Assembly (NCBI GenBank): GCA_963798915.1 | Contig: CAWCVB010000002.1 | Span: 640,001 to 704,000, forward strand | Length of the DNA stretch: 64,000 bases | DNA from: an uncultured Gemmatimonadales bacterium | GTDB taxonomy: Bacteria; Gemmatimonadota; Gemmatimonadetes; Gemmatimonadales; GWC2-71-9 | Direction of reading: 5' to 3' | Made by a program: the position numbers and the translations under genes | The notes under the pieces: model-generated | The model's database searches: none | Told to the model about the DNA's origin: nothing | The model's input: the letters and a program-made list of their open reading frames with translations, nothing else | Shown here: piece by piece, positions 14,032 to 62,761 of the stretch | Position numbering within the stretch: the first letter of the stretch is position 1 | Layout: each line of letters starts with the position of its first letter

Positions 14032-14382
14032 ATGGAAGCGCATGTAGCCGAGGCCGACGCCCACAGCCATCCGGGCCCGGCGCTCTATTTCAAGATTGCC
14101 TTCGTGCTGTTCATCGTGACGGCACTGGAGGTCGCGACCTACGAGCTGTCGCATCGCGGCGGGACACCGCAGTCGATCGTGAAGCCGGTGCTGGTCCCGA
14201 TCCTGCTTGTCCTCAGCGCCGTCAAGTTCGCGCTGGTGGCCATGTTCTACATGCACCTGAAGCAGGACAACAAGCTCTTCTCGGGGCTGTTCGTCTTTCC
14301 ATTGATTATCGCCGCCATCATCGTGGTCTCGCTGATGCTGCTGATGTCCTACCACATGCACTACAACGCAGGCCTGGTGTGA
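14032..14382 (+). CDS. ctaF: caa3-type oxidase subunit IV family
   Basis: Three TM helices, KFALVAMFYMHLKQD; position in operon. Confidence 0.85.
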   Translation: MEAHVAEADAHSHPGPALYFKIAFVLFIVTALEVATYELSHRGGTPQSIVKPVLVPILLVLSAVKFALVAMFYMHLKQDNKLFSGLFVFPLIIAAIIVVSLMLLMSYHMHYNAGLV

Positions 14383-35161: not shown

Positions 35162-36100
35162 ATGAGAACAGGCAGTCTTGCGGCAGCGATCGTTACGCTT
35201 GCGGCAGCGCCGCTCACCGCCCAGCAGGGCACCTCCGCCGCGCTGGTCCTGCGGCTGGCGGCCATCCCGGCCCCCCTTGGCTACGAGAAGCGCCTGGCCG
35301 ACACGCTCGCCGCTCTCCTGCCGCGCGCGACGCTCGACCGCGCCGGCAACGTCATTGTGACGCTCGGGAGCGGGCAACCCCGGCGCATGATCGCGTGCCC
35401 AATGGATGAGCCGGGCTGGGTGGTTGGCGGCATTCGGGAGGATGGCTACCTGACCGTTCGGCGCCTGCCTGGTCGCACACCCGCACTGTTCGACCAGCAG
35501 GCCGAAGGACAGCGCATCACCCTGCTCGGCACCCATGGCGACTTGCCTGGCGTGGTGGGCGTCCGCTCCGTACATCTGACGCGCGGCCGGGCCAGCAGCG
35601 ACAGTCCGTTCACCGCGGATGACGCTTTTGTGGATGTGGGCGCCAGTTCAGCGGACGAGGCCCGGGCACTTGGAGTCCGAGTCACCACCCCCTTCGTCCT
35701 CAGCAAGGCCCCGCTCCGCTATGGCGCCAACCTCGCCGCGGCACCGTCCATCGGCACCAGGGCGGCCTGCGCCGCCCTGGTCCGGGCGGCTTCGGCCCGG
35801 TCCCGGGGCACGGTCGTGCTCGCGTTCGTGGTGGAGCAGGGCCTCTCTGCACGCGGGCTGCTCGCCGCCGCAACCATGCACGGGCCCTTCGCCGAGACCC
35901 TGATCCTCGGTGCCGCGCCCGGCGACAGCGCCGTCCATGCTGATTCGCTGCCCCGCCTCCGTCAGGGAGCGGGGCTCGGCCACGTCAGGGTGTGGCGCCT
36001 TCGCGATCGATTCGATGGCTGGGCGGTGGAAACCGTGGCGCTGGACGACGTGGACCTGCTCCAAGCGCGCTTGCGCGCGTGGATCGGGGGCGCGCCATGA
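35162..36100 (+). CDS. M42 (TET) peptidase homolog lacking metal ligands; signal peptide
   Basis: M42 fold motifs (DRAGNV, FVDVGASS) present, but CPMDE, SIGTR and VEQG replace AHxDE, DDR and EE. Confidence 0.8.
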   Translation: MRTGSLAAAIVTLAAAPLTAQQGTSAALVLRLAAIPAPLGYEKRLADTLAALLPRATLDRAGNVIVTLGSGQPRRMIACPMDEPGWVVGGIREDGYLTVRRLPGRTPALFDQQAEGQRITLLGTHGDLPGVVGVRSVHLTRGRASSDSPFTADDAFVDVGASSADEARALGVRVTTPFVLSKAPLRYGANLAAAPSIGTRAACAALVRAASARSRGTVVLAFVVEQGLSARGLLAAATMHGPFAETLILGAAPGDSAVHADSLPRLRQGAGLGHVRVWRLRDRFDGWAVETVALDDVDLLQARLRAWIGGAP

Positions 36101-37182
36101 CTCGCTTTGGACTGACAGCCATGATGCTCGCAAGCGTCGTGTCATCGCTCGCCGGGCAGGGTGCTCCCGTGAATGAGGCCGAGTCGGTGCTCCGGACGCT
36201 GGTGGAGAGCTACGGGCCGTCCGGCGCCGAAGCGCCGGTGCGAGACGCCGTGAAGCGATTGCTGCCGTCCGGCCTGCATACCGAAACGGACAGTGCAGGC
36301 AATCTGTGGGTGCGCTTTGGCCGGGGGCCGTCCCCCACGGTGTTCGTGGCACATCTCGACGAGATCGGCTGGCGCGTCACGGACATCAATGCCGACGGCA
36401 CGCTCTCGCTGGAGCGCCTTGGCGGATTCTTCCCCTCGCTCTATGAAGGGAAACCGGCGCTGATCCACACGCCGGCGGGCCCGGTCAGCGCCGTCTTCAT
36501 GCCACGTGATTCGGTTGGCCGGCGACCAGACCGGACCCCGGAGGCGATCCGGGTGGATCCAGGCACCGGTTCTGCCGCAGCCAGCCGCCAGAAGGGCATC
36601 GCCGTCGGCAGTACCGTGACCATGCCCAAGTCGTATCAGCGGCTCGCCGGCACCCGGGCAACCGGACGTTCCTTCGATGACCGGGTCGGCTGCACCGCGC
36701 TGATCCTGGCCGCGCGGCGCCTCGCCGACCGCCCGCCGGCACATCCGGTGGTGTTCATCTGGAGTGTGCGCGAAGAGGTGGGCCTCGAAGGTGCCGCCGT
36801 CGCGGCCGATGCCCTGGGTGTCGGTGTCTCCCGGGTGCACGCAGTGGATACCTTTGTCTCCGCCGACGCGCCGCTGGAACTTCCGGCCTACGGGCTCGCG
36901 CCCCTGGGGGCGGGCGCGGTGATCCGGGCCGTAGACAACAGCAACGTGGCGCCCGCCGCGCTGGTGGACTCGGTACTTGCCCTGGCAGCGCGTGAGGAGA
37001 TTCCCCTCCAGTTCGGCGCCACCAGTGGCGGCAACGACGGATCGGTCTTCGCGCCATGGGGAGTGCCGGACATTCCGCTGGCGTGGCCACTGCGCTACTC
37101 GCATTCGCCAGTCGAGGTGGTGGACCTCAAGGATGTGGTGGCACTGGGCCGGCTGGTGGAGGCGCTGGCGCGCCAGGAGTAA
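36097..37182 (+). CDS. M42-family metallo-aminopeptidase; signal peptide
   Basis: AHLDEIG, SFDDRVG, REEVG, AVDT, GGND, YSHSPVE; ATGA overlap with upstream gene. Confidence 0.9.
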   Translation: MTRFGLTAMMLASVVSSLAGQGAPVNEAESVLRTLVESYGPSGAEAPVRDAVKRLLPSGLHTETDSAGNLWVRFGRGPSPTVFVAHLDEIGWRVTDINADGTLSLERLGGFFPSLYEGKPALIHTPAGPVSAVFMPRDSVGRRPDRTPEAIRVDPGTGSAAASRQKGIAVGSTVTMPKSYQRLAGTRATGRSFDDRVGCTALILAARRLADRPPAHPVVFIWSVREEVGLEGAAVAADALGVGVSRVHAVDTFVSADAPLELPAYGLAPLGAGAVIRAVDNSNVAPAALVDSVLALAAREEIPLQFGATSGGNDGSVFAPWGVPDIPLAWPLRYSHSPVEVVDLKDVVALGRLVEALARQE

Positions 37183-37220: not shown

Positions 37221-37238
37221 TCTGCATATTTATGCATT
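37221..37238 (+). promoter_or_regulatory. ARG box (ArgR operator)
   Basis: tcTGCATATTTATGCAtt palindrome fits WNTGNATWWWWATNCANW; abuts the argG ATG; argR ends the operon. Confidence 0.85.
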
Positions 37239-38465
37239 ATGCAGAAACGCCCGATTGTCGCCCTCGCCTTCTCCGGCGGCCTGGATACCTCCTACTGCGT
37301 CCCTGTTCTCGCCGAGGCGGGCTACGACGTCCACACCGTCTTCGTCAACACGGGCGGCGCCTCCGCCGCCGACCGGGAGGCCATTGACCGCCAGGCCCGC
37401 GCGGTCGGCGCGGTCCAGCACCATGAAGTCGATGCCCGCGAAGCGGTGTTCGATCGCTTTGTCCGTTTTCTGATCCAGGGCAACGTGCTCCGCGGTGAGG
37501 TCTACCCGCTGTCCGTTGCCGCCGAGCGCACCCAGCAGGCCATGTCCGTCATCGGCATCGCGCGCGCCGTCGGCGCACGGGCGGTGGCGCATGGTTCCAC
37601 CGGCGCCGGCAACGACCAGATCCGCTTTGACATCGCCCTTCGGGTGCTGGCTCCGGAACTCGCCATCATCACGCCCATTCGCGAGCAGGCGGTCAGGCGT
37701 GAGGAATCCATCGCCTATCTCGAGGTGCGGGGCCTTCCGGTGCCGGCCCGGGCATCAGCGTACTCCATCAATCGCGGGCTCTGGGGCACCACCTGGGGCG
37801 GCGGCTGGACCCACGACACCTGGGCTGGCCCGCCGCCCGAATTGATCGAGCCACCTGCCGACGCGCCAGCACCGACCGAACTGGAGTTGGGCTGGGACCG
37901 GGGACTACCGGTGACGCTCGATGGAGCCAACCTGGCGGGGGCCGAACTGGTCGACCGTCTGGGTGCCATCGCCGAGTCGTACGGCATCGGCCGCTCGATT
38001 CACGTCGGCGAAACCGCGCTTGGCATCAAGGGTCGGATCGGATTCGAGGCGGGTGCCGCGCTGCTGCTGATCGGGGCGCACCGCGAGCTGGAGAAGCTGG
38101 TGCTCACTCGCTGGCAGGCGTTCTGGAAGGATCAGCTGGGCCGTTTCTATGGTGACCGGCTGCACGAGGGGCAGTACTTCGATCCGGCGCTGCGCGACAT
38201 CGAGGCGATGGTCACCAGCTCACAGCAGCGCGTCAGCGGCGAGACCCGAGTGCGCCTTTGGCCCGGCCGGTTTCAGGTGGTCGGTACCCGCAGTCCGTAC
38301 TCCATGATGGACCCGGGCGTCGCGACGTACGGCGAGGAGAACCGGCTCTGGACCGGTGAGGAAGCCCGCGACTTTGCGCGGGTATCGGCCATTCCGTCCT
38401 TGCTGGCCGTGCGTGCGGCCGAGCACAGCAAGGCGGCTGGGGCGGAGGCGACATCATGGTCGTGA
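37239..38465 (+). CDS. argG: Argininosuccinate synthase
   Basis: ALAFSGGLDTS, AHGSTGAGNDQIRF, GIKGRIGFE. Confidence 0.95.
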   Translation: MQKRPIVALAFSGGLDTSYCVPVLAEAGYDVHTVFVNTGGASAADREAIDRQARAVGAVQHHEVDAREAVFDRFVRFLIQGNVLRGEVYPLSVAAERTQQAMSVIGIARAVGARAVAHGSTGAGNDQIRFDIALRVLAPELAIITPIREQAVRREESIAYLEVRGLPVPARASAYSINRGLWGTTWGGGWTHDTWAGPPPELIEPPADAPAPTELELGWDRGLPVTLDGANLAGAELVDRLGAIAESYGIGRSIHVGETALGIKGRIGFEAGAALLLIGAHRELEKLVLTRWQAFWKDQLGRFYGDRLHEGQYFDPALRDIEAMVTSSQQRVSGETRVRLWPGRFQVVGTRSPYSMMDPGVATYGEENRLWTGEEARDFARVSAIPSLLAVRAAEHSKAAGAEATSWS

Positions 38466-39547
38466 CCACGCGCGTCCGGCTGGATCGAATCGCGTCCAGC
38501 ACCCGCAATGCCCAGCTGGCTTCCGAAGTGATTATCGGGAACGAAATCGTGGCGCAGGAAGGCTACGTGCTGGCGGTGCGCATCCTGGCCGACAAGGCCA
38601 GCTACAACACGCTCGAAGACCTGAGCGGGCGCATGGTCTCGCTGCGCGGGGGAGACGTCATCGCGGGTGTGCTGGGTGCGCGCCGGGCACTGCGCGGGTA
38701 CGCCGGCGAGGTGCCCCGGCACGTCGCTGCGGGCGACACCATCCAGGTGCTCAATCTCGGCGGCATCCTGGGGCGCTGCACCTCGGAAAATCCCGACATA
38801 GGTCCGCCCTTCGATGCCGAGGTGCTGGGCGCCGTGCTGACCTTTCCGGCGTTGGGTGACCGGGTGGGCCGGCCGGCCCACATCCGCGACCGCGCGGTTC
38901 CGCCGGCCGATCGCCTGGAGAGCAGGGTGCCGGTCGTCTACGTCGCGGGCACCTGCATGAACGCCGGGAAGACGGTCGCTGCAACCGAGCTCGTGCGCGG
39001 GCTCGCGCGGGGCGGGCTCAAGGTGGCAGCCGCCAAGCTGACCGGAGTCTCGCTGATGCGCGACGCGCTGTCGATGCAGGATGCCGGCGCGTTGTCGGCG
39101 CTCACGTTCAACGATGTGGGAATTGCAACCACGCATCCGGGCGTGACGGTGGCCACAGCCAAGGGCGTCTTCAACCGGCTGGCAGCGAGCAAGCCTGATG
39201 TCATCGTTGCCGAGCTGGGCGACGGCATCCTGGGCGAATACGGCGTACAGGATATTCTGGCGGACCCGGAGCTGGCCGCGATCGGCGCCGCCTGGGTCAT
39301 GGCCGCTCCCGACCCGGTCGCCTGCTGGGGTGCTGTGGAACTGATGCGCCGCCAGTTCGGCCTGCCGGTCACGGTGATTACCGGACCGGCCACCGACAAT
39401 GACGTGGGCCGGAGCTACATCCGCGGCTCCCTCGGGTTGCCGGCGCACAACGCCCGTCGTGATGCCGCGGGGCTCCTGGCGGCGGTGCGCGAGAGCCTCG
39501 ACGCGTGGGTTGCGCCGGAGCCGACCACGGCCGGGGCCGAGTCGTGA
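38456..39547 (+). CDS. DUF1611-like P-loop protein in the arg operon; candidate N-acylglutamate synthase
   Basis: VAGTCMNAGKT P-loop, AAAKLTG, VIVAELGDG; overlaps argG by 10 nt and argC by GTGA. The CDS is confident; the function is inferred. Confidence 0.8.
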   Translation: MVVTTRVRLDRIASSTRNAQLASEVIIGNEIVAQEGYVLAVRILADKASYNTLEDLSGRMVSLRGGDVIAGVLGARRALRGYAGEVPRHVAAGDTIQVLNLGGILGRCTSENPDIGPPFDAEVLGAVLTFPALGDRVGRPAHIRDRAVPPADRLESRVPVVYVAGTCMNAGKTVAATELVRGLARGGLKVAAAKLTGVSLMRDALSMQDAGALSALTFNDVGIATTHPGVTVATAKGVFNRLAASKPDVIVAELGDGILGEYGVQDILADPELAAIGAAWVMAAPDPVACWGAVELMRRQFGLPVTVITGPATDNDVGRSYIRGSLGLPAHNARRDAAGLLAAVRESLDAWVAPEPTTAGAES

Positions 39548-40593
39548 CCCAGGCCCTGCGCGTGGCGGTTGTCGGAGCCGCGGGTTATGCAGGAGGCGAG
39601 TTGCTTCGCCTGCTGTTGCAGCATCCCCACGTGGGGGAAGTGCTGGCGACGAGCCGCAGCCAGGCGGGCAAGCCCATTGCCGACGTCCATCCTGGTCTCG
39701 CACCACTCACCGAGGCTCGCTTCTCGGGCTTCTCGCCGGGAGAAGCGGCCGATGGCAGGGACGTGGTCTTCCTCGCCCTGGAGCATGGTGAGTCATCCCG
39801 GCTTGCGAGTGAGGTCTTTGCCGCCGGTCCTGGCCTGGTCATCGACCTCGCCGCGGATTTCCGGATCCAGGAGCCGCGTCTCTACGAGCAGTTCTACGGT
39901 CCGCATGCCGCGCCCGACTATGTGCACCGCTTTGCCTACGGTCTGGCCGACGTCGCCGGCACCGGGCTTCGCGGCGCCGCCGCGATCGCGGCACCGGGTT
40001 GTTTTGCGACTGCCGCACAGCTGGCGCTCTGGCCCATCGCACGGGCCGGACTGGCGTGCGAACCCGCCATGTTCGCCATCACCGGATCCAGCGGCGCCGG
40101 CGTGCATCCGCGTCCGACCACGCATCATCCCGCCCGGGCCAACAACGTGTTTGCCTACGCCGTGTTGTCGCACAGGCACGAGGCCGAAGTGCTGGCAAGC
40201 TGGCGCACCTGGACCGGCCGGAGCGACGCCCACGCACGGCTGATGGTCCACGCGGGACCATTCGTCCGCGGGATCTACCTGACGCTGCATGCCCGACTGT
40301 CCGCTGCCGACGCGTCGCGGCTCGAGGCCGCACTGCCACTCTATCGCGAGGCGTACGCCGGCCGGCCCTTTGTGCGAGTGCTTGACCGGGTTCCCGACCT
40401 CACCCAGGCGGTGGGTACCAATTTCGCCTTTATCCACGCCGCCAGGTCCGCGGATGGCCGGGAGCTTCAGGTCGTGGTCGCCGAAGACAACCTGGTGAAG
40501 GGGGCGGGCGGCCAGGCCATCCAGGCCATGAACCTGGCCCTGGGTCTCGATGAGACTGCCGGACTCGAGTCGGTCGGATTCCATCCATGCTGA
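39544..40593 (+). CDS. argC: N-acyl-gamma-glutamyl-phosphate reductase
   Basis: VVGAAGYAGGEL, DLAADFR, APGCFAT, DNLVKGAGGQAIQAMN. Confidence 0.95.
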   Translation: MTQALRVAVVGAAGYAGGELLRLLLQHPHVGEVLATSRSQAGKPIADVHPGLAPLTEARFSGFSPGEAADGRDVVFLALEHGESSRLASEVFAAGPGLVIDLAADFRIQEPRLYEQFYGPHAAPDYVHRFAYGLADVAGTGLRGAAAIAAPGCFATAAQLALWPIARAGLACEPAMFAITGSSGAGVHPRPTTHHPARANNVFAYAVLSHRHEAEVLASWRTWTGRSDAHARLMVHAGPFVRGIYLTLHARLSAADASRLEAALPLYREAYAGRPFVRVLDRVPDLTQAVGTNFAFIHAARSADGRELQVVVAEDNLVKGAGGQAIQAMNLALGLDETAGLESVGFHPC

Positions 40594-41738
40594 GCACGGC
40601 CGGCGTGGGTGCGTTGCTACCGGTCTATGCCCAGATGCCGGTGAAGCCAGTCACGGGTCGTGGGTCATGGGTCATGGATGAAGATGGCAACCGCTGGCTC
40701 GATGCCTACGGAGGCCACGCGGTGGCGGCCACCGGCCACAGCCATCCGGCAGTGGTGAAGGCGATCAGCGAGCAGGCCGAAGCACTCCTGTTCTACTCCT
40801 CGGTGCTGCCCCATCCGAACCGGGAGCGGCTGGCGGCCGAGCTGGTGCGGCGCATGCCGGCGGGCTTGTCGCATGTGTTCTTCGCCAACTCCGGAGCGGA
40901 AGCCAACGAATCCGCCATGCTGCTGGCGCGGAAAGTGACCGGTCGCTCGCGCATGCTCTCGGTCGCTGGCGGGTGGCACGGTCGTACCATCGCGTGTCTC
41001 TCCGTCACCGACGGCGAGAAGTACGAGGCCGGTGCTCGCGCCGCCGGCATGCCGCTGTCGGTCAAGGTCGGGTTCAACGATGTCAGCGCGCTCGATGAGC
41101 TGATTGACGACTCGGTCGCCGCGGTCATCGTGGAACCAGTGCAGGGAATGAAGGGCGCCCGTGACTGCGCTCCCGAATTTCTGGACGCTGCGCGTCAGTT
41201 GACTGCCGCGCGTGGTTCCCTGCTCATTTTCGACGAGATTCAGTGTGGCGTGGGCCGGACCGGCGCATTCACCGCCGCCGAGTCATTCGGGGTCGTGCCC
41301 GATCTCCTGACCATGGCCAAGGGACTCGGTTCCGGGCTGCCGATCAGTGCGGTCGTGGCGACTGCAGCAATTGCCGGTCAGGTCAAGGTGGGGGACCTGG
41401 GCAGCACCTTCGGTGGCGGGCCGGTGCCCTGCGCCGCCGCCCTCGCCACGCTTCAGGTTATCGATGACGAGGACCTGCTGCTCAACGTGCGCAGGATGGC
41501 ACAGCGGCTTCGCGCTGGCGCATTGCGGGCGGGAGTGCAGGCGGTGCAGGGCCGGGGCCTGCTGCTTGGACTTCGGCTCGATCGGCCGGCGACTGACGTG
41601 CAGCGCGCGCTGTTCCAGCGACGGATTCTGACCGGCACGTCCACCGATCCCGCCGTGCTTCGGCTGATGCCCCCATTGTCATTTTCCGCCGACGAGGCGG
41701 ACCTGCTGATCGCGACGCTGGTCGAGGTCCTCGCATGA
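40587..41738 (+). CDS. argD: N-acylornithine aminotransferase (class III PLP)
   Basis: NSGAEANE, WHGRT, FDEIQCGVGRTG, AKGLGSG, STFGG. Confidence 0.9.
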   Translation: MLSTAGVGALLPVYAQMPVKPVTGRGSWVMDEDGNRWLDAYGGHAVAATGHSHPAVVKAISEQAEALLFYSSVLPHPNRERLAAELVRRMPAGLSHVFFANSGAEANESAMLLARKVTGRSRMLSVAGGWHGRTIACLSVTDGEKYEAGARAAGMPLSVKVGFNDVSALDELIDDSVAAVIVEPVQGMKGARDCAPEFLDAARQLTAARGSLLIFDEIQCGVGRTGAFTAAESFGVVPDLLTMAKGLGSGLPISAVVATAAIAGQVKVGDLGSTFGGGPVPCAAALATLQVIDDEDLLLNVRRMAQRLRAGALRAGVQAVQGRGLLLGLRLDRPATDVQRALFQRRILTGTSTDPAVLRLMPPLSFSADEADLLIATLVEVLA

Positions 41739-42748
41739 GCGGCCGCGACTTCCTGGCGATGGAGGACTGGGGCAGCGAGGGCGTGGAATCCCTTCTCTCG
41801 CTGGCGGCGCGCATCAAGCGCGGGGAGGTGACGGGTGGACTCGAGCGCAAGATCCTGGCCGCCATCTTCATGGACCCGAGCCTGCGCACCCGGTCCAGCT
41901 TCGAGGCCGGCATGTTCCTTCACGGCGGGCACGCGATCATCCTGGAGCCGGGGAAGGGAAGCTGGGCCCTGGAAACGGAACATGGCGTCGTGATGGACGG
42001 TGCCTCGGTCGAGCATGTGATCGAGGCGGCACGGGTGCTCAGCCGTTATGCCGATGCGCTCGCGGTCCGGGCATTTCCGAAGGGCGGGACCTGGCAAGCG
42101 GCGCGCGAGGACCGGGTCATCCGGGACTTCGCACGCCATGCGTCGAAGCCGGTCATCAACATGGAGAGCACGCGCCGCCATCCCTGCCAGGGGCTGGCCG
42201 ACGCCATGACCTTGCGCGAACACCTGGGCACCACCCGGCGGAAGCGGTTCGTCCTCGCCTGGGCGTGGCACCCCAGGGCGCTTCCGACGGCCGTGCCCGC
42301 CAGCGCCGCCATTGCGGCCGCGATGCTGGGAATGGATGTGGTGATTGCCCGGCCCCCGGGCTATCAGCTCGACCCCGATGACATGGCCACCATCGCGCGC
42401 TGCGCCGATGAGGCGGGCGGCAGTGTGACGGAATCGGAGGAGCTCGACGCGGCCCTGGAGGGTGCCGACGCCGTGTACGTCAAGTCATGGGGCGCGCTCT
42501 CCGCATTTGGCCGACCGGAGGCCGAGGCCGTGCTGCGCGAACCGCACCGTGGCTGGCGCATGACCGCCGGCCGCCAGCACCTGAGCCGTGGCGGTGCGGG
42601 TATCGTCATGCACTGCCTGCCGGTGCGTCGGAACGTCGAGATCGATGATGCCGTGCTCGACGGCCCGCACTCGGTGGTCGTGGATGAAGCGGAGAACCGC
42701 CTGCATGTACAGCGGGCGTTGTTGCTCGAGATACTCGCTGAACGCTGA
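41735..42748 (+). CDS. argF: N-acylornithine carbamoyltransferase (ArgF'; predicted succinyl-specific)
   Basis: SLRTR, GSWALE...MDGASVEH, HPCQ, WAWHPRALPTAV, HCLPVRRN (AOTCase/SOTCase signatures). Confidence 0.9.
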   Translation: MSGRDFLAMEDWGSEGVESLLSLAARIKRGEVTGGLERKILAAIFMDPSLRTRSSFEAGMFLHGGHAIILEPGKGSWALETEHGVVMDGASVEHVIEAARVLSRYADALAVRAFPKGGTWQAAREDRVIRDFARHASKPVINMESTRRHPCQGLADAMTLREHLGTTRRKRFVLAWAWHPRALPTAVPASAAIAAAMLGMDVVIARPPGYQLDPDDMATIARCADEAGGSVTESEELDAALEGADAVYVKSWGALSAFGRPEAEAVLREPHRGWRMTAGRQHLSRGGAGIVMHCLPVRRNVEIDDAVLDGPHSVVVDEAENRLHVQRALLLEILAER

Positions 42749-42823: not shown

Positions 42824-43786
42824 TTGTCACCCAAGGAGCTCACCCTGTCACTGGATCCAACTCAGGGCATTGCCGGCCTCAAGGGCGCGCTGCGCTACGT
42901 ACGCGCCTATCGCGACCAGGTGTTCGTGGTCAAGCTGGGCGGCGACGTGCTGCGGGATGCCGACCTGCTCGACCAGGTCGCCACTCAGCTGGCCTTGCTC
43001 CACTCGCTGAGCATCCGTCTCGTCGTCGTCCATGGCGGCGGGCCCCAGGCGTCGGCGCTGATGCGCCGCCTGGGCCAGGAGCCCGTCATGGTCGGCGGCC
43101 GCCGGGTCACCGACGATGCGGCGCTGGAAGTCGTCAAGATGGTGTACGCCGGGTTGCTGAACACCGATCTCGTTTCCGCGCTGCGCGGGCATCGGGTGCA
43201 GCCGGTCGGCTTGAGCGGAGTGGATGCCGACCTGCTCACCGCCCATCGGCGGCCCCCGGTGGATGTGGTGGACGATGAGGGACGCAGCCGCCTGGTGGAC
43301 TTCGGCCATGTTGGCGACCTGGACCGGGTGGATGTCCGTGTCCTGGTCACGCTCATGGATGCGCGGTTCGTGCCGGTGGTGGCGAGCCTCGCGGGAGACG
43401 ACGACGGCAATGTGTTCAACGTCAACGCCGACACCGTGGCCGAAGCACTCGCCACGGCGCTGCGGGCCCAGAAACTGATCTTCCTGACCGGCGTGCCTGG
43501 TGTGCTTCGGGATCGCAACGATCCTTCCACGCTCGTGACATTCGCCGATCCGGACGACCTGATCGGCCTGATGCAGAGTGGCGCTCTGGCCGGAGGCATG
43601 CGGCCCAAGGTGGAGGCCTGTATCCGCGCCGCCACTGGCGGCGTCGAGCGGACCCACATCGTGGATGGCCGTCAGCCCGACGCGTTGCTGACCGAGGTCT
43701 TCACTGGTGCTGGTTGCGGGACCATGATCGTCGGCAGGAAGGAGAAGGCGACCTACCTTGGCGTTGACCTGGCCGCCCGAGATTGA
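42824..43786 (+). CDS. argB: N-acylglutamate kinase
   Basis: VVKLGG, VVHGGGPQ, GRRVTD, NVNADT, GGMRPKV; start approximate. Confidence 0.93.
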   Translation: MSPKELTLSLDPTQGIAGLKGALRYVRAYRDQVFVVKLGGDVLRDADLLDQVATQLALLHSLSIRLVVVHGGGPQASALMRRLGQEPVMVGGRRVTDDAALEVVKMVYAGLLNTDLVSALRGHRVQPVGLSGVDADLLTAHRRPPVDVVDDEGRSRLVDFGHVGDLDRVDVRVLVTLMDARFVPVVASLAGDDDGNVFNVNADTVAEALATALRAQKLIFLTGVPGVLRDRNDPSTLVTFADPDDLIGLMQSGALAGGMRPKVEACIRAATGGVERTHIVDGRQPDALLTEVFTGAGCGTMIVGRKEKATYLGVDLAARD

Positions 43787-44834
43787 GCTGCTCCGCAGCC
43801 TGGTCGCGACTCCTTCGGTCAGCGGGACCGAGGCGGCGGCAGGCGAGGTCGTGGCGGTGCAGGCCCGCGAGTGGGGACTCGACGCGGTGCGCGATGCGCA
43901 TGGGGTGCGCGTGGAAGTTCGCGGCGGGCTCCCGGGGCCGACCCTGGCCCTGGTGTCGCACCTCGACACCGTGCCTCCGGGCGAGGGGTGGACTCGCGAT
44001 CCCTACCGGGCCACCATCGAGGCCGGGCGGCTGTACGGTCGTGGCGCGGGCGATGCGAAAGGGCCGGTTTCAGCGATGCTCGCTGCCGCCTGGGACGTGG
44101 CGCGCGAGCAGCGCCTGGCCCGCGGGCGCTTGCTGGTCCTGCTGGGCTATGGCGAGGAGACACGGCACACGACCATGCCCGCCGCGGTAGCCGGCGCAGG
44201 CCCCATTGACGCGGCCATCATCGGCGAGCCAACCAATCTGGACTTTGCGGTGGCCCAGCGCGGCCTCATGATGGTGGACCTTGTGGCTGCGGGCGATCAG
44301 CGGCATGCGGGGTACGCCGCGGCTGATGGCGAGTTCACCAACGCGGCGCTGGTGCTGGCGGCCGACCTGCTCCGGCTGGGCCAGCTCTTCCATGAACGGG
44401 CGCACCCGATGCTCGGTTTTCCTACCATCACTCCAACCATGCTCGAAGCCGGGGTAAGCCGGAACGTGACTCCGCCATCCGCTCGAGCCGTGCTCGACAT
44501 CAGGAGTACGCCGACATGGCCTCACGCTGAAATCGCCGAGCGTCTTCGGCGCGAGCTTCGGTCGGAGGTGGCCGTCACCTCGGACCGGCTGGTTCCCTGC
44601 GAGACGCCGGAGAGTTCGCGACTGCTTGGCGTGATGCGACAGGCCCGCGCGGCCTCCCGCTCGTACGGCAGCCCGACCTGCTCGGACTGGGTATTCCTGC
44701 GCGATCACGACACCGTGAAGTGCGGGCCCGGCACCAGCCGTCGCTCGCATACGCCCGACGAATTCATTGACCTGCATGAGGTGAGTGCCGCGCGAGACCT
44801 CTACGCACGGGTCGCGGAGAGTTACCTCCAGTGA
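43758..44834 (+). CDS. argE: M20 deacylase, ArgE-like (N-acylcitrulline/ornithine deacylase)
   Basis: SHLDTV, GRGAGDAKG, GEE, GEPT, YGSPTCSD, GPGTSRRSHTPDE. Confidence 0.85.
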   Translation: MALTWPPEIELLRSLVATPSVSGTEAAAGEVVAVQAREWGLDAVRDAHGVRVEVRGGLPGPTLALVSHLDTVPPGEGWTRDPYRATIEAGRLYGRGAGDAKGPVSAMLAAAWDVAREQRLARGRLLVLLGYGEETRHTTMPAAVAGAGPIDAAIIGEPTNLDFAVAQRGLMMVDLVAAGDQRHAGYAAADGEFTNAALVLAADLLRLGQLFHERAHPMLGFPTITPTMLEAGVSRNVTPPSARAVLDIRSTPTWPHAEIAERLRRELRSEVAVTSDRLVPCETPESSRLLGVMRQARAASRSYGSPTCSDWVFLRDHDTVKCGPGTSRRSHTPDEFIDLHEVSAARDLYARVAESYLQ

Positions 44835-46198
44835 GACGCCCGGAAATGCTCTGGTCTCCCGGGGCCGAACCCAATGTGCAGATGCTGGCGTACACAGTGG
44901 GCGATGATCCGGTGTGGGATGCGGCGCTGCTCCGCTGGGACGTGCTGGGCAGTCTGGGGCACGTGGCTGGGCTCAAGGCATCGTCGCTGCTGAGCGAACG
45001 GGAGTATCGCAGTCTTCGCGCCGGACTCCGCGCGGCGCTCAAGGCGGTGGATGCCGGCCGCCTGACCATTGGCCGGAACCATGAGGACGCCCACTCTGCC
45101 GTCGAGGCGTGGCTGACTGGCCGCAGCAGGGTGGCGGGCGAGCGGTTGCATACCGGACGTTCGCGCAACGACCAGATCGCCGTGGACCTGCGGCTGTTCC
45201 TGAAGCACACCCTGCTCGAGATTCATGCCTCGGCGAGCTCCTTGGCCATGGCGCTGGTGCGGTTCGGCGTTGGCCATCGCGCCGTCCTGTGGCCGGGCTA
45301 CACCCATCAGCGCCGGGCAATGCCGTCCTCGGCGGCGCTCTGGGCCGGCGCACTCGCCGAAGGTCTGCTCGACACCCTGGAAGACCTGCCGACCCTCTGG
45401 CGGCGGGTGGACCGCTCGCCGCTGGGCAGCGCCGCTGGTTACGGCGTGCCGCTTCCGCTCAAGCGCGAGGCGGCAGCGCGGGCCCTCGGCTTCGCCGGGC
45501 TGGACCGGAACGTGGCCAGTGTGCAGAACAGCCGGGGCAAGCTCGAGGCCTCGGTGCTGGCCTGGTGTGGCCAGCTGGGTCACGACCTGTCCAAGCTGGC
45601 GAGCGACGTCATGCTCTTCACAGCGGAGGAATTTGGCTACCTCATCCTGCCGCCGGCCCTGGCCACCGGTTCCAGCATCATGCCCCATAAGCGGAACCCG
45701 GATCTCTTCGAATTGACCCGCGGGCGGGCGGCCGCGTTGGACGGCGATCTGGTCACCATGCTGCTGCTCAAGGGCAAGCTCGGCACGGGCTATCACCGCG
45801 ACTTTCAGTTGCTCAAGGAGCCGCTCTTCCGGGGATTGCACCGCACCCAGGAGATGCTGGCCATGATGACCACCGCCGTGCCGATGCTGAAGGTGGACCC
45901 GGAGCGCTGTCGCGCTGCGCTGGCTGGCGGTGCACTCGCCACGGACGAAGTGATGCGGCGGGTCGAAGCGGGCGTTCCCTTCCGCCGGGCCTACCGCGAG
46001 GTGGCCGCTGCCATCCGTCGGGGCGAAGCATTCGAGGCGCCGAGCCCGCGGCAGATCGTCGCGCGCCGGCGCTCAACCGGCGGCCTCGGCAATGTGGGGC
46101 TGGCCGAGGCGGCGGCCCGGATCCGCGCGGCGGAACGCTGGCAGCGTGCCGAGCGAAGGCGATTCATGACGGCGATGCGCCGTCTGGCTGGGAGCTGA
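44831..46198 (+). CDS. argH: Argininosuccinate lyase
   Basis: LHTGRSRNDQ, PGYTHQRRA, TGSSIMPHKRNPD. Confidence 0.95.
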   Translation: MRRPEMLWSPGAEPNVQMLAYTVGDDPVWDAALLRWDVLGSLGHVAGLKASSLLSEREYRSLRAGLRAALKAVDAGRLTIGRNHEDAHSAVEAWLTGRSRVAGERLHTGRSRNDQIAVDLRLFLKHTLLEIHASASSLAMALVRFGVGHRAVLWPGYTHQRRAMPSSAALWAGALAEGLLDTLEDLPTLWRRVDRSPLGSAAGYGVPLPLKREAAARALGFAGLDRNVASVQNSRGKLEASVLAWCGQLGHDLSKLASDVMLFTAEEFGYLILPPALATGSSIMPHKRNPDLFELTRGRAAALDGDLVTMLLLKGKLGTGYHRDFQLLKEPLFRGLHRTQEMLAMMTTAVPMLKVDPERCRAALAGGALATDEVMRRVEAGVPFRRAYREVAAAIRRGEAFEAPSPRQIVARRRSTGGLGNVGLAEAAARIRAAERWQRAERRRFMTAMRRLAGS

Positions 46199-46202: not shown

Positions 46203-46661
46203 GTGAGCAGCGATCGCCGCAAACGCCAGCTCAAGATCCTCGAGATGATCGAGACCCGGGCATTGCGTACCCAGGAGGAGGTGGCGGACGCACTCGCATC
46301 GGAAGGCTGGGACGTGACCCAGTCCAGCGTGAGCCGGGATATCGCAGCGCTTGGATTGGTCAAGGTGGGCGGGGCATACCGGCGTCCCGCTGCGATCGCT
46401 GTCAATGCGGACGATCCCGACGAGCGGCGTCTGGCCGAGGGTGTGCTGACGGCCGAACCGGCGGGTGACGGACTGGTGGTGCTGCACACGCCTCCGGGCG
46501 AGGCGAGTCGCGTGGGGGCGGCACTCGACCGGCTGGCCTGGAATGAGATCGTGGGAACCATTGCCGGTGACGATACCATTTTTCTCGCCACCAACGGCCG
46601 GGCCGCGCAGCGGCGACTGCTGCGGCTGGTGGGGCGATTTGTGAGCACCGGGCGAGCTTGA
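46203..46661 (+). CDS. argR: Arginine repressor
   Basis: TQEEV, VTQSSVSRDI, GTIAGDDT. Confidence 0.95.
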   Translation: MSSDRRKRQLKILEMIETRALRTQEEVADALASEGWDVTQSSVSRDIAALGLVKVGGAYRRPAAIAVNADDPDERRLAEGVLTAEPAGDGLVVLHTPPGEASRVGAALDRLAWNEIVGTIAGDDTIFLATNGRAAQRRLLRLVGRFVSTGRA

Positions 46662-49450: not shown

Positions 49451-50596
49451 ATGCGCGTAGCCATCTTCTCCGAAGTCTACTGGCCGATGGTCAGTGGCGT
49501 GGGGGTGACCCTCCGGCGCCTGGCCGACAGCCTGCTGGCGCGGGGCCACGCCGTGCGGGTCTATTCCGCATCCTACGCGCTGCCGCATTCCGGCGATCGG
49601 CCGGAAGTCTGCCGCTCCCCCAGCCGGCCCTTCTTTCTGTACCCCGACGTGCAATGGGCCTTCCCTCGTCATCGGACGCTGGTAGCCGATGTCGCGCGGT
49701 TTCAGCCGGACGTTGTTCACCTGGCCACCGAATTTGCCATGGGATACGCCGGCGCCAGGGTGGCGCGCCAGCTGGCCCTTCCGGTGGTGGCCTCCGCCCA
49801 TACCGATTACGAACAGTACGCCTCCCGTTATCGGGTGGACTGGGCGGTCCGCGCTGGTTGGCGCTATCTCCGCTGGTTTTACGGCCAGGCCGAAACCGTG
49901 CTTTGTCCGACGCGAATCTATGAGGAGCACCTGCATGCTCGAGGCGTGACCAACACCGGGATCTGGTCGCGCGGGGTGGACGCCCGCGTCTTTCATCCCG
50001 ACTTCCGCTCCAACGCGTTTCGCGGGGCGCTGGGCGCCCGCGAAGGCGACCTGGTGGTAACCTACATCGGGCGGATGGCGCGGGAAAAGAATCTGGAGCT
50101 GCTGCTCGAGGCGTGGACGCTGCTTCGGGCGAGGCATCCGTCGGCCCGGCTGGTGCTGGTGGGGGAGGGTCCCCTGGAGGAGCAGATCGCGCAACGCGCC
50201 CTCCCAGGTGTGCACCTCACCGGCCTCCTCACCGGCCGTGACCTCGCCGAAGCCTACGCCTCGGCCGACCTGTTCGCATTTCCCAGCGTCACCGAGACAT
50301 TCGGCAATGTCCTGCTCGAGGCAATGGCGTCAGGACTCCCGTCGGTGGTGGCAGCGGCCGGTGGCGTGCTGGAGTTCGCGCGCCACGGCCGGAATGCCTG
50401 GCTGGTCGAGCCGAGCTCGGCCGACGCCCTCGCTCACGGCATGGACCGCCTGCTGACCGACCATGAACTTCGCCACGGACTCGGCCGGGGCGCGCTCGCA
50501 ACGGCGGCGGCGCGGGGATGGGAAGGGGTGGATGACCAGCTTCTGCAGGACTACCAGGAGGTGGCGGAGCGCTTTGCCGCTCGGCAGGCGGCATAG
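49451..50596 (+). CDS. GT4 glycosyltransferase
   Basis: MRVAIFSEVYWPMVSGV, GRMAREKN, TETFGNVLLEAMASG. Confidence 0.93.
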   Translation: MRVAIFSEVYWPMVSGVGVTLRRLADSLLARGHAVRVYSASYALPHSGDRPEVCRSPSRPFFLYPDVQWAFPRHRTLVADVARFQPDVVHLATEFAMGYAGARVARQLALPVVASAHTDYEQYASRYRVDWAVRAGWRYLRWFYGQAETVLCPTRIYEEHLHARGVTNTGIWSRGVDARVFHPDFRSNAFRGALGAREGDLVVTYIGRMAREKNLELLLEAWTLLRARHPSARLVLVGEGPLEEQIAQRALPGVHLTGLLTGRDLAEAYASADLFAFPSVTETFGNVLLEAMASGLPSVVAAAGGVLEFARHGRNAWLVEPSSADALAHGMDRLLTDHELRHGLGRGALATAAARGWEGVDDQLLQDYQEVAERFAARQAA

Positions 50597-51413
50597 CGGG
50601 CCCGCTCACTCGACGATCCCTCCGATCGATCCACTGCACGAAAAGCATACCCGCTGTCACCAGGTAGATGAGCCCGGCCGGTATCCACATGATCAGGCCC
50701 GCCACCTGCTGGTCCTGCATTGGTGTCAGGCCCCAGGCGGCAGTCGCCGCTGCATGCACGGCATACCACGGTGATCGCGAAAGCGTCAGCAGCGCACCGA
50801 GCAGCCCGCACTGGAGCCCGGCGGTAAAGACGTACAGGATCCCAAGCCCCCGGTCCATGCGGCGTCCGGGATGGCGAAAGAGCAGCCACCAGAAGGCGAA
50901 GCCGGTGCAGAGGAAGGATGCGTGCTCGAGCGCATGAATGGTCTCATGGCGAACTGCCGCATCGTAGGCGCGCGGCAGGTGCCAGCTCCAGAGCACGATG
51001 GCGCTGGCGACCCAGACGCTGGCCGGCCGCAGGGCCTGCCGGACCAGCGCGCGGAGCCCGTCGGTGGCTCGCCACCACCTGCCCAGCCAATGCCGCCATC
51101 GTCTCGGTAGTGCCCAGAGCGAGATATGAACTGGCGCTGCCATGACCAGGAGCGGCGGCGCCACCAGCAACAGCAGCAGGTGCTGCACCATGTGCGCGGA
51201 GAAGAGCACGTGACCCAGTTCGTCGAGGGGGGAGAGCAGCGCCAGAACCAGTACCATCAGTGCCGCCGCCGCACTGACGACGCGCCACATTGCCACCCCC
51301 CTGCCGCGGCCGGCCCGGTGCCAGAGACGCGTGATACCGGTGCTGTAGACGGCCGCGCCGCATGCGAGCCCGGCCATCACACCAGGATGGAAGTCCCAGC
51401 CGATCGTCAACAC
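50289..51413 (-). CDS. ctaG: Second Caa3_CtaG-type assembly protein; 3' end runs about 300 nt into the convergent GT4 gene
   Basis: LFSAHMVQHLLL, WHLPRAY, HALEH, DQQVAGLIMWIP; homology ends near 50620. Confidence 0.75.
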   Translation of the reverse strand: MLTIGWDFHPGVMAGLACGAAVYSTGITRLWHRAGRGRGVAMWRVVSAAAALMVLVLALLSPLDELGHVLFSAHMVQHLLLLLVAPPLLVMAAPVHISLWALPRRWRHWLGRWWRATDGLRALVRQALRPASVWVASAIVLWSWHLPRAYDAAVRHETIHALEHASFLCTGFAFWWLLFRHPGRRMDRGLGILYVFTAGLQCGLLGALLTLSRSPWYAVHAAATAAWGLTPMQDQQVAGLIMWIPAGLIYLVTAGMLFVQWIDRRDRRVSGPAMPPAERQSAPPPPGSPAEAGHPPLPIPAPPPLRARPGRVRGEVHGRSAGGPCRERGRRPSSARPARHSGRGARTPARHRPLPPPTGVLTPLPRAGHCRMSR

Positions 51414-51754
51414 AGCGGCGCCAGCACAAGGGCAATCGCAAAGAAGACAAGCCCGCCAAGGAACAGCAGGTTCAGGAATATTCCAGCTCGTGCCATGAAG
51501 CGGATGCGCCGGGCGTGCGGGCCATCAGCCTGACGGAAGGCACGGACAGACGCCCGGAAGGACCACGCGCTCGCCGCGGTCGCCGCGATCGTAATTCCGG
51601 CTAGCAGCCACCATCCCGGGCCGAACCGCGACATGCCTGCCGGTGATCGCAGGCACCGGGCGGCTCCGATGGAGACGACAAGCAACAGGTCGCCACTCCA
51701 GGCCGCCGCAGCACCGAATGCCGCCAGCCAGAGCGTGCGCGCGCTGGTACTCAC
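51407..51754 (-). CDS. Small 3-TM membrane protein in oxidase operon 2
   Basis: GTGA coupling to subunit III; two Cys; hydrophobic. Confidence 0.7.
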   Translation of the reverse strand: MSTSARTLWLAAFGAAAAWSGDLLLVVSIGAARCLRSPAGMSRFGPGWWLLAGITIAATAASAWSFRASVRAFRQADGPHARRIRFMARAGIFLNLLFLGGLVFFAIALVLAPLC

Positions 51755-52350
51755 AGGCCGAATCGCGGGCTCAGGTACAGTGACGTGAAGACCGCGATCC
51801 ACACGGCATCAACGAAATGCCAGTACAGCGCCGCATTGTGGAGGTAGTGTCGATGCGTCCGATCCAGCTGGCCTCGCAAGGCCATGGCGAGCACAAAGCC
51901 CAATACGAAGAGACCCACCAGTACGTGCGTCCCATGCAGCCCGGTGACGATGAAGAACACCGATCCGTATGCGTGGCTCGCAGGGGTAAAGGTCTGCTTG
52001 CTGTATTCGACACCCTGCAAGGCCAGGAAGGAGGCACCAAGGATGATCGTCGCGGTCAGGCCCAGCCATGACCGCTGCAGCTGCCCGCGATCCAGGTTCC
52101 GCTCCGCCCACCAGAGCGCAACGCTGCTGGCAAGCAGGAGCCCCGTGTTGGGGAGTGCAATGGTGAGTTCCGGCGGCCCGCCTGGGGGCCACGGTGTGGC
52201 GGACCGTGCCGCCAGGTAGAAGTAGCTGAAGAGCAGGTAGGCAAAGAGCGATGCTTCCGTCACGATCAGGAGCAGCATGCCCCACTGGCCCGGCGGGTGC
52301 GGCTCGGCGGCCTTTCCGACCGGCATGGAGGCGAGCGTGGAAGCCGTCAT
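51751..52350 (-). CDS. ctaE: Heme-copper oxidase subunit III (copy 2)
   Basis: IVTEASLF, TGLHGTHV, YWHFVDAVW. Confidence 0.92.
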   Translation of the reverse strand: MTASTLASMPVGKAAEPHPPGQWGMLLLIVTEASLFAYLLFSYFYLAARSATPWPPGGPPELTIALPNTGLLLASSVALWWAERNLDRGQLQRSWLGLTATIILGASFLALQGVEYSKQTFTPASHAYGSVFFIVTGLHGTHVLVGLFVLGFVLAMALRGQLDRTHRHYLHNAALYWHFVDAVWIAVFTSLYLSPRFGL

Positions 52351-54275: not shown

Positions 54276-55195
54276 CGCAGCCCCCTGAGGTATCGGTTTA
54301 CATCCGTCGTCTCTTGATCGGTGAGTCCGGTGCGGGGCATGAGCACTCCCGGCTTGATGGAATCGGGAGCCGAGAGCCACCGGTCGAGTGCCGCTGCCGT
54401 GTTTGGAAGGACGCCAGCGGCAATGGTGGCCCGGCTGGCCAGGTGAGTCAGGTCCGGACCTGCGTCGCCGTCAGCCGCAGAGCCTCGGATCGTGTGGCAC
54501 GCGGCGCAGCCTCGCTCGAAGAACAGGCTGTCCGGGGCCGTGCGCGCTGGCTCGCGCTGGCGGTGTTCCCAGCGGGCAAAGCCCGCCCCGTCATCCACGA
54601 CCACCGCGAGCCGCATGTTGGCGTGCGCCAGCCCGCAGAACTCCGCACACTGTCCATAAAGGCGCCCTGCCGAGTCGGCCTCGATCCACATCGTGTTGGT
54701 CTGGCCAGGAATGAGGTCGGTCTTCCCGGCGAGCGCCGGCACCCAGAAGCTGTGGATCACGTCGCCAGACAGGAGCTGGAGGCGCACCCGCATGCCGGCG
54801 GGGATATGGAGCTCGTTGGCGGTGACGAAGTCCGTCGCGCCGGACGGCGCCAGGTATTCGAGTTTCCACCAGTAGCGATAGCCGGTGACGCGAACGGTCA
54901 ACCCGGGATCGCGACCGCCACGGGCATAGTCGGTGAGCACGGTCAGGGTGTAGGCAAAGATGCCGAGGAGAATGACCACCGACACGCCAGCGCCGATCAC
55001 GATCCACCGACGTCCCGCGGCCTCGCCGTCGTCCGAGATGCCGACCGCGGGCACGCGGCGGCGGAACAGCGCCATCAGCAGGAGGCCCGCGACCACCAGT
55101 ACTACTACAGTGGCCGTGGCGGCGAGCACCCAGCTCAGCCGCCCGATGGCGAGCGAGGAAGCGCTGCCGTGCGACACGATCGTTGGCGCGCTCAT
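54272..55195 (-). CDS. ctaC: Oxidase subunit II with fused cytochrome c (copy 2)
   Basis: DVIHSFW, CAEFCGLAHANM, CAACH. Confidence 0.93.
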   Translation of the reverse strand: MSAPTIVSHGSASSLAIGRLSWVLAATATVVVLVVAGLLLMALFRRRVPAVGISDDGEAAGRRWIVIGAGVSVVILLGIFAYTLTVLTDYARGGRDPGLTVRVTGYRYWWKLEYLAPSGATDFVTANELHIPAGMRVRLQLLSGDVIHSFWVPALAGKTDLIPGQTNTMWIEADSAGRLYGQCAEFCGLAHANMRLAVVVDDGAGFARWEHRQREPARTAPDSLFFERGCAACHTIRGSAADGDAGPDLTHLASRATIAAGVLPNTAAALDRWLSAPDSIKPGVLMPRTGLTDQETTDVNRYLRGLR

Positions 55196-59726: not shown

Positions 59727-59801
59727 CTCGCCAGTCAGGCCGGGCCTTGAACTCCTGCCGTGTGCCGCCGGGGTGGTACGCCGCGGGGAAAGGTCACAGC
59801 A

Positions 59802-62738: not shown

Positions 62739-62761
62739 CAGCGGGGAGGAAGGCTGTTCGC

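Follow-up and report, generated by a model that had tools for sequence, protein, structure and literature searches.

The arginine operon of the window and its unassigned gene

The DNA analysed here, referred to as the window, is a stretch of 64,000 nucleotides (nt) from an uncultured Gemmatimonadales bacterium (GenBank assembly GCA_963798915.1, contig CAWCVB010000002.1, positions 640,001 to 704,000), and within it, between positions 37239 and 46661, nine closely packed genes of the forward strand make up an operon for the synthesis of arginine, in the order argG-X-argC-argD-argF'-argB-argE-argH-argR. This order had been proposed in a first-pass annotation of the sequence, and it is the one now seen with Pfam and NCBIfam models. 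The gene called X (38456..39547, 363 residues) is the only member of the operon without a role, every dedicated step of the pathway but the first being otherwise encoded; from its context, its conservation and its fold, it is predicted to encode an N-succinyl-L-glutamate synthase that is neither of the GNAT nor of the ArgJ type.

The genes that surround X were identified as follows, all of them on the forward strand. The first, argG (37239..38465), encodes argininosuccinate synthase (PF00764, PF20979; TIGR00032, 280.7 bits against a cut-off of 268.2), and its true start is taken to be the ATG at 37239, because in the longest open reading frame (ORF), which begins at 37056, the Pfam and TIGR00032 matches start only at residue 68. 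Downstream of X lie argC (39544..40593; TIGR01850, 328.5 bits), which has a GTG start (in the longer ORF that opens at 39505, the argC models align only from residue 19 onwards), and argD (40587..41738), an N-acylornithine aminotransferase (PF00202, 315 bits) for which the argD-type NCBIfam models are the best, below their cut-offs. These are followed by argF' (41735..42748), an N-acylornithine carbamoyltransferase (NF003384, 419 bits, cut-off 288) with the succinyl-type residues V92/P184/E302, and by argB (42824..43786), an N-acylglutamate kinase of 320 residues whose start codon is uncertain (TIGR00761, 219 bits). The argE-like gene (43758..44834), also with an uncertain start codon, encodes an M20 deacylase of the ArgE/DapE type (PF01546, PF07687; all equivalog models below cut-off), whose nearest sequence in the PDB is 3ct9 (E 4e-45) and which is predicted, as regards its substrate, to be an N-succinylcitrulline desuccinylase. 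Finally come argH (44831..46198), argininosuccinate lyase (TIGR00838, 281.4 bits, cut-off 279.5), and argR (46203..46661), the arginine repressor (PF01316, PF02863; TIGR01529, 107.9 bits, below the cut-off of 130.45).

As the first-pass annotation had maintained, ArgB and ArgH are unfused, the former consisting of the amino-acid kinase domain only and the latter of Lyase_1 only, and neither a GNAT nor an ArgJ domain was found in any protein of the operon with the Pfam and NCBIfam models; nor was one found at E<=1e-6 in the 124 further ORFs of the window of at least 150 residues, shorter ORFs not having been scanned. The two junctions of X could likewise be read in the sequence as described: X opens with an ATG, preceded at a distance of 7 nt by GGAGG (38444-38448), and overlaps by 10 nt with the end of argG at 38465, while the GTG of argC at 39544 is shared with the stop of X in the form GTGA.

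A palindrome similar to an ARG box, TGCATATTTATGCA, occupies positions 37223..37236 (no strand assigned) and has the 5+4+5 layout of such boxes. It ends 2 nt ahead of the start of argG, and therefore precedes the operon and not X itself, which refines the earlier mention of an ARG box upstream of X. Even if one mismatch is tolerated, the window contains no second copy of the pattern, and none of 100 shuffles produced any; in the survey of related loci described below, the exact pattern is present in 21 of 80, where it always begins 10-21 nt ahead of argG and occurs at no other place. From the pattern scan, the shuffles and this conservation, TGCATATTTATGCA is probably the operator of the arg operon, to which ArgR would bind. 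A scan for the promoter of the operon returned no promoter-like site, and terminator-like sites were at the level of chance.

Directly upstream of the operon, on the same strand, there are two ORFs of the M42 aminopeptidase family (35162-36100 and 35992-37182), the first of which aligns with no more than the initial half of the Pfam profile.

Sequence, family and predicted fold of X

The three motifs to which attention had been drawn are all where they had been placed in X: (i) a Walker A motif, GTCMNAGKT, at residues 165-173 (38948..38974); (ii) AAAKLTG at residues 191-197, containing K194 (codon 39035..39037), 22 residues past the Walker lysine; and (iii) VIVAELGDG at residues 249-257, a Walker B-like motif of the form hhhhE-x-G-D-G with its glutamate at E253 (codon 39212..39214), all read on the forward strand. 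In an alignment (A1) of X with 57 diverse full-length relatives, 28-59% identical to it, G171, K172, K194 and E253 of these motifs are invariant (57/57), as is P87 outside them, and T173 is found in 56/57; S14, E54, R76, T173, D203, D220, D248 and D286 are retained in at least 90%.

The family is large and without a name. Among the candidates scored, 3796 proteins were homologous to X at E<=0.001, and the best 120 of these, 79-90% identical, are all unnamed or called 'hypothetical protein'; an exhaustive search over cluster representatives gave 1453 at E<=0.001, and 173 of these reached E<=1e-30. The closest relatives that carry a name are all labelled Gemmatimonadales, and in a tree of 75 sequences X nests inside Gemmatimonadota. 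No NCBIfam model matched X, those for BioD included, and neither did any PDB sequence; searches of the PDB sequences with the C-terminal half of X and with profiles gave matches in the P-loop region only, to FtsY, BioD and MobB, with no entry for DUF1611 or DgcN even at E<=10. At E<=0.01, the 57 relatives touch the Pfam families CbiA (23), MobB (22), DUF1611 (14) and AAA_26 (5), the last of which has no match in X; from the sequences, these contacts read as a generic P-loop similarity rather than as membership of any of the families. Neither a GNAT nor an ArgJ domain was found with Pfam in X or in the 57 relatives.

The model of X obtained with AlphaFold2 from the 57-sequence alignment (predicted local distance difference test, pLDDT, 96.8; predicted template modelling score 0.93) has two domains. 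The N-terminal domain (residues 1-150; 38456..38905, forward strand), proposed to bind the substrates, consists in the models of beta structure and a single short helix (pLDDT 92-97, with 91.9 for the domain folded alone). Foldseek found no fold relative of it in the PDB (best E 0.34, template modelling (TM) score 0.30), Pfam gave no match, and the named Atlas clusters gave a single uninformative match at 0.85. In 27 sequences from the surveyed loci this domain has a mean column identity of 67%, compared with 59% for the P-loop domain, an order that is reversed in the wider alignment A1, in which the mean fraction of the top residue is 0.43 for the N-domain and 0.48 for the P-loop domain. Its invariant residues over the 27 sequences include K47, E54, R59, D67, R76, N100 and R136, among which K47, R59, R76 and R136 would suit a substrate with several carboxylates.

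The C-terminal domain (residues 151-363; 38906..39547, forward strand) is a P-loop domain of the SIMIBI/BioD-like class, as had been supposed from the motifs, and the Foldseek search against the PDB puts dethiobiotin synthetase first: the leader is BioD 3of5 (E 2.1e-6, TM to target 0.54), and other BioD structures (1dts, 1dae, 1dbs, 4wop, 3fgn) are also matched. After BioD come FtsY, Ffh, MeaB (4lc1, 3.5e-5) and HypB (2hf8, 4.8e-5, TM to target 0.62).

The first-pass annotation had gone further and assigned X to DUF1611, the family to which we take DgcN to belong, and this assignment does not hold. On X the DUF1611_C profile (PF07755) reaches 18.1 bits (E 0.0019), short of its cut-off of 25, and the match extends over just the 41 residues 155-195, the best of the 14 relatives that touch it having an E of 1.3e-5; the DUF1611 structure 2g0t appears at rank 46 for the X model (E 1.1e-4, TM 0.38, 230 columns), below BioD, and the DgcN structure 7XRJ is not among the best 50 of at least 500 fold matches. 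In addition, DUF1611 proteins have a Rossmann-like alpha/beta N-domain, and that of X is modelled as all-beta instead. Because of the score below the cut-off and the architecture of the N-domain, X is placed, as far as profile and model go, outside DUF1611. The two have in common a P-loop domain of the SIMIBI type, with the motif GxxxxGK[ST], and the fact that DgcN N-acylates the amino group of glutamate; they differ in that DgcN uses D-glutamate and an acetyl group and is catabolic, whereas X is predicted to use L-glutamate and a succinyl group and to be anabolic. The acetylation of D-glutamate by DgcN, which the first-pass annotation had invoked, agrees with the citation of Yu et al. 2023 in the accessible text of a preprint (bioRxiv 10.1101/2024.10.14.618325).

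The resemblance to BioD raises the question of a mechanism other than acyl transfer. BioD (1dts, 1a82, 3of5) and X share a GTxxxxGKT loop, a lysine 22 residues later and a strand of the hhhhE-G-x-G type, the lysine of BioD, K37, being its second catalytic lysine; a profile of the C-domain aligns GTxxxxGKT...K with residues 5-37 of 1a82 and so sets K194 on K37 of the Escherichia coli enzyme, a match that is weak on its own (E 0.26). BioD, on the other hand, is a single domain of about 220 residues, whereas X adds a beta domain of 150, their pathways and substrates are different, and the likeness in sequence ends after the P-loop region. X could then be a ligase, dependent on adenosine triphosphate (ATP), that joins succinate to L-glutamate in the manner of BioD: with MgATP bound at the P-loop, a carboxylate of succinate would be phosphorylated to an acyl phosphate, which the amine of glutamate would attack, with release of adenosine diphosphate (ADP) and phosphate and without any acyl-coenzyme A (acyl-CoA). 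Oxygen phosphorylation followed by attack of an amine is the chemistry of BioD, of CobB/CobQ, of the N-domain of CTP synthase and of adenylosuccinate synthetase, BioD is the best structural match, above the DUF1611 structure, and the invariant K172, K194 and E253-x-G-D-G, together with the nearly invariant T173, are phosphoryl-transfer residues, K194 standing at the same spacing as in BioD. All this has to be set against a sequence match to BioD that is weak and limited to some 33-50 residues around the P-loop (E 0.00025-0.26), and against a sequence that does not separate a site for ATP from one for the ADP moiety of CoA. To our knowledge, every biosynthetic N-succinylation uses succinyl-CoA, which counts for the thioester as donor and against a ligase, and the only characterised remote relative in print, DgcN, is called an acetyltransferase in the text accessible to us. 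A ligase is considered rather unlikely.

Conservation of X in the arg clusters of other genomes

In a survey with one genome per species, 587 relatives of X were confirmed, located by means of a 12-sequence alignment (A2), and the best 80 were kept. Of these loci, 77 have argC at most 640 nt downstream of X and 72 have argG at most 640 nt upstream; one or the other lies within this distance in 79/80, and in the remaining locus, L079, argG is one gene off. All eight other arg genes are present in 43 of the 80. The loci span at least six phyla, as labelled (Gemmatimonadota, Acidobacteriota, Myxococcota, Planctomycetota, Pseudomonadota and Elusimicrobiota), and include a cultured carrier, Holophaga foetida DSM 6591 (Acidobacteriota). 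The order of the arg genes varies, being X-argC-argD-argB-argE in Myxococcota and argH-argG-X-argC in Holophaga, and X stays in the cluster. In the arg spans of the 80 loci there are only seven stretches of at least 300 nt without an assignment, and their ORFs are alpha/beta hydrolases (three loci) or have no Pfam match, with no GNAT and no ArgJ among them. The conservation of X in arg operons, which had been put forward as a check of its function, is thus observed across genomes.

Fused forms also exist. In one representative, P0236 (626 residues, truncated at the N-terminus), the whole C-terminal part of X is followed by an entire ArgB domain; the X part shares 39% identity with X, and the ArgB part 35% with ArgB of the window. 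Five longer homologues were also found, three of them with ArgC-type domains. Proteins in which X is followed by an ArgC-type domain (P0240, P0272, P0273 and P0274, 661-731 residues) are all single-member clusters, and since the stop of X overlaps the start of argC in GTGA, a single-base error could create such a fusion; the X-ArgC forms, P0240 included, were accordingly set aside as evidence, being possible read-through artefacts.

These comparisons bear on the objection that X has no role in arginine synthesis and is a conserved passenger, or a member of another pathway with shared regulation. What can be said for it is that the function of every member of this family is a prediction from comparison. 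A passenger would not be expected to be translationally coupled to both neighbours, to keep its position over at least six phyla despite a changing gene order, or to occur fused with ArgB and ArgC, and we regard this objection as having very little probability, the least of all the readings discussed here.

Some loci depart from the pattern. A gene for an alpha/beta hydrolase is found inside the arg cluster at L018:12973-14064, L028:12999-14084 and L079:9028-9960, where it separates argD from argF' in the first two, both of Gemmatimonadales, and argG from X in L079, a proteobacterial metagenome-assembled genome (MAG) in which no ArgE was found in the stretch examined; such a hydrolase could be an alternative N-succinylcitrulline hydrolase. 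Four loci from MAGs of Myxococcota or 'Deltaproteobacteria' (L062, L064, L067 and L073) have the order X-argC-(argD)-argB-argE-(argR)-argG-argH; the 10 kb examined contain no argF', and their ArgG and ArgH are only 32-35% identical to those of the window. In L076, a MAG labelled Verrucomicrobiae, X is 76% identical to the Gemmatimonadales protein, and X, argC and argD were matched in fragments, which suggests a mis-binned contig or a frameshifted sequence rather than a verrucomicrobial copy.

The acyl group predicted from ArgF'

The first-pass annotation had left open whether succinate or acetate is the acyl group, and it is the carbamoyltransferase of the operon that speaks to this. According to a review from the group that determined the structures of these transcarbamylases, the enzyme acting on the acetylated substrate is characterised by Glu92, Asn185 and Lys302, and that acting on the succinylated one by A/S/P/V/Q, P and V/I/E at the corresponding positions (PMC4581275). 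The specificity residues of ArgF' in the window are V92, P184 and E302. Across 60 ArgF' loci, position 92 is V in 54, A in 2, S in 2, T in 1 and I in 1, and in none of them Glu; in 60/60, P occupies the second position and E, V or I the third. The best match of ArgF' in the PDB is 3l06, which is the E92V mutant of the N-acetylornithine transcarbamylase of X. campestris, and with the changes E92A/P/S/V the specificity of the enzyme reportedly shifts to N-succinylornithine (Shi et al. 2007, cited by bioRxiv 10.1101/2024.10.14.618325). This signature being of the succinyl type, the intermediates of the pathway in the window are predicted to be N-succinylated, like those of Bacteroides, so that of the two acyl groups once considered it is the succinyl that is predicted and not the acetyl.

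That X should be instead an N-acetyl-L-glutamate synthase, with acetylated intermediates throughout, might be argued from the score of NF003384 (419 bits), from the closest solved structures, which are those of the X. campestris N-acetylornithine transcarbamylase, and from DgcN, an acetyltransferase according to the text accessible to us. Against this stand the three succinyl-type positions, in the window as in the 60 loci, the identity of the best PDB match as the E92V mutant, and the reported switch of specificity; an acetylated product is considered very improbable.

The NCBIfam name for ArgF' of the window is N-acetylornithine carbamoyltransferase (NF003384), yet its residues are of the succinyl type; the acetyl naming looks like a systematic annotation error in the clade.

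An earlier prediction for a protein that fits the description of X

The idea that a protein such as X takes the first step had been presented as new by the first-pass annotation, and in this it had been preceded. Steroidobacter denitrificans grows in minimal medium with no recognisable ArgA, and among the genes of its arg cluster is one for a hypothetical protein, ACG33_RS14135, whose role in the first step has been predicted, without experiment (the GapMind paper: bioRxiv 10.1101/2024.10.14.618325, version 2026-07-02; PLoS Genet 2026-11-12, PMC13759103). As far as the accessible text of that work goes, homologs of ACG33_RS14135 are virtually always in arg operons and never occur in one genome with an ArgA of the P. 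aeruginosa type, the protein is remotely like DgcN (7XRJ, E 1.4e-7 with Foldseek), and of 70 ArgF' encoded nearby 90% have A/P/S/V at position 92 (bioRxiv 10.1101/2024.10.14.618325).

X and ACG33_RS14135 very likely belong to the same family, a link made by matching descriptions: both are hypothetical proteins in clusters with argG, argC, argD, argF', argB, argE, argH and argR, both show at most a remote fold likeness to DgcN, both neighbour an ArgF' without Glu92, and the reaction predicted for them is the same. The analysis of X independently reproduces each comparable point of that prediction. They differ in that S. denitrificans, in the accessible text of the preprint, has no recognisable ArgE (bioRxiv 10.1101/2024.10.14.618325), whereas the operon of the window has one. 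A homolog search from the proteobacterial member in L079 gave no Steroidobacter name among the matches listed; the text supplements of PMC13759103, in their accessible part, do not mention ACG33_RS14135, its UniProt identifier or 'Gemmatimon'; and a literature search found no other paper on the X protein.

Since the prediction is already in print, the gain of the present analysis is narrower. The paper, in its accessible text, names no Gemmatimonadota and no Holophaga, and does not discuss a new N-domain, a lysine of the BioD type or an ATP-dependent alternative. What is added here is: (i) the occurrence of the family in six phyla, Gemmatimonadota among them, and in a cultured carrier, Holophaga foetida; (ii) the separation of X from DUF1611, the N-domain without a solved relative, the BioD-type lysine and the alternative of an ATP ligase; (iii) and finally, the three-residue succinyl signature in 60/60 loci, the conserved operator-like palindrome and a possible X-ArgB fusion.

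The lack of a recognisable ArgE in S. denitrificans is also the point from which a different role for X could be defended, in which it would belong to arginine synthesis without catalysing the de novo first step. X might be a transacylase in the manner of ArgJ, returning to glutamate the succinyl group carried by N-succinylcitrulline or N-succinylornithine, which would explain an X-like gene in an organism without a recognisable ArgE; or it might be a nucleoside triphosphatase (NTPase) serving the deacylase or ArgB as a metal loader or a regulator, given that the G3E metallochaperone GTPases MeaB and HypB are among the fold matches and that the M20 deacylase belongs to a family of metalloenzymes. 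In either form the first step would stay missing from the operon, and the conserved N-domain, with its invariant Arg and Lys, looks like a site for small molecules. For the transacylase, moreover, the presence of ArgE in the operon makes the pathway linear here. As to the metallochaperone GTPase, that idea was set aside: X has neither the [NT]KxD guanine motif nor a CxCC metal motif, and S. denitrificans, for which no recognisable ArgE is reported, has retained its X-like gene, which argues against a chaperone of ArgE. A role of this kind, in one form or the other, seems improbable to us.

Proposed function and mechanism

The interpretation that we favour is that X takes the first step of the pathway, because this step is otherwise missing, because the gene is coupled to its neighbours, and because it is kept in place across phyla. 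It is likely, on these grounds, that X is an N-acylglutamate synthase, whatever its donor, and within this likelihood the larger share, though by no means all of it, would fall to succinyl-CoA. Taken as a whole, the more specific reading of X as a succinyl-CoA:L-glutamate N-succinyltransferase, the first enzyme of an arginine pathway of the succinyl type, is given a probability of roughly 0.44. The earlier claim that X supplies the missing step, as a substitute for ArgA that is not its orthologue, finds support in comparative evidence: the synteny across phyla, a pathway that is otherwise complete, the BioD-like P-loop and an ArgF' signature pointing to succinylated intermediates. It also agrees with the published prediction.

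Under this interpretation, X would N-succinylate L-glutamate from succinyl-CoA, by analogy with DgcN. In succinyl-CoA it is the nucleotide-diphosphate part that the P-loop domain would bind, and the N-domain, through K47, R59, R76 and R136, would bind the carboxylates of glutamate and succinate; the product would then pass through ArgB, ArgC, ArgD, ArgF' (as N-succinylornithine transcarbamylase), the M20 deacylase, ArgG and ArgH. In other words, an unrelated protein of two domains, one a new all-beta fold and the other a BioD-like P-loop, would replace the synthases of the GNAT and ArgJ types. The reaction, the donor and the parts played by the two domains are what we infer; the gene, its conservation, the operon around it, its fold and the succinyl signature of ArgF' are what was observed.

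Several considerations weigh against a succinyl-CoA transferase, or against some part of it. The absence of ArgA, ArgJ, a short GNAT or a GNAT of the BT3761 type covers the 64-kb window only. The leading fold matches of X are users of ATP or GTP (BioD, FtsY/Ffh, MeaB, HypB), and the link to DgcN is remote; since the N-domain is unlike anything in the PDB, the analogy with DgcN extends to half of X at most, and DgcN itself reportedly uses acetyl-CoA. The invariant K172, K194 and E253, with T173, form a phosphoryl-transfer set that a transferase acting on a CoA thioester does not obviously need, which favours the ATP-dependent ligase. The fused forms of X are single sequences and possibly artefacts of read-through or assembly, and the link with ACG33_RS14135 is one of matching descriptions. 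Lastly, the co-occurrence test of the published work, in its accessible text, compared ArgA of the P. aeruginosa type only (bioRxiv 10.1101/2024.10.14.618325).

Relation to the known first enzymes of arginine synthesis

The known N-acetylglutamate synthases have GNAT or ArgJ (DmpA/OAT) folds and use acetyl-CoA or N-acetylornithine. With the classical and the short synthases X would share the step, in which glutamate is committed by N-acylation, and it would differ from them in being a P-loop protein. The possible X-ArgB fusion P0236 mirrors the layout of ArgA, kinase plus synthase, with a different synthase domain. In the accessible text of one account, the types are ArgA, the bifunctional ArgJ, ArgO, S-NAGS and that of C. 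glutamicum (PMC3827942).

A functional counterpart would be BT3761 of Bacteroides thetaiotaomicron, an N-succinylglutamate synthase of the GNAT type that belongs to the succinyl pathway of Bacteroidetes and is located in the arg operon, whose mutants need arginine (PMC8121099, accessible part). The reaction predicted for X, its place in the arg operon and an ArgF' acting on N-succinylornithine are the same in both; the difference is that BT3761 is a GNAT acyltransferase, whereas X has no GNAT domain and an unrelated fold.

The first step of arginine synthesis is a classic case of non-orthologous replacement, with ArgA, ArgJ, the short GNATs and the GNAT of Bacteroides, and a P-loop enzyme, if this is what X proves to be, would add an unrelated fold to the series. 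It would also close a gap in the pathway of abundant phyla of soils and sediments, so that the tools that predict auxotrophy from genomes would stop calling these organisms dependent on arginine. If X were an ATP ligase, the synthesis of arginine in Gemmatimonadota and in many Acidobacteriota, Myxococcota and Planctomycetota would start without acyl-CoA, which would be a chemically new way of committing glutamate to arginine and a new activity in the BioD superfamily.

Other features of the window

Apart from the arg operon, the window has two clusters for caa3-type cytochrome c oxidase, one on the forward strand (10324-15254) and one on the reverse strand (50289-57122), each with COX2, COX1, COX3 and the assembly factor CtaG, the second of which adjoins genes for cytochrome b and a Rieske protein. 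Further along, a gene of the mandelate racemase/enolase superfamily is split over two overlapping frames (61628-62320 and 62184-62738), with the N-domain and the start of the C-domain in one and positions 70-217 of the C-domain in the other, which is a frameshift and marks either a pseudogene or an error of assembly; its neighbours encode a thiamine-diphosphate enzyme on one side (59760-61631) and an FAD-binding oxidase on the other (62735-63640).

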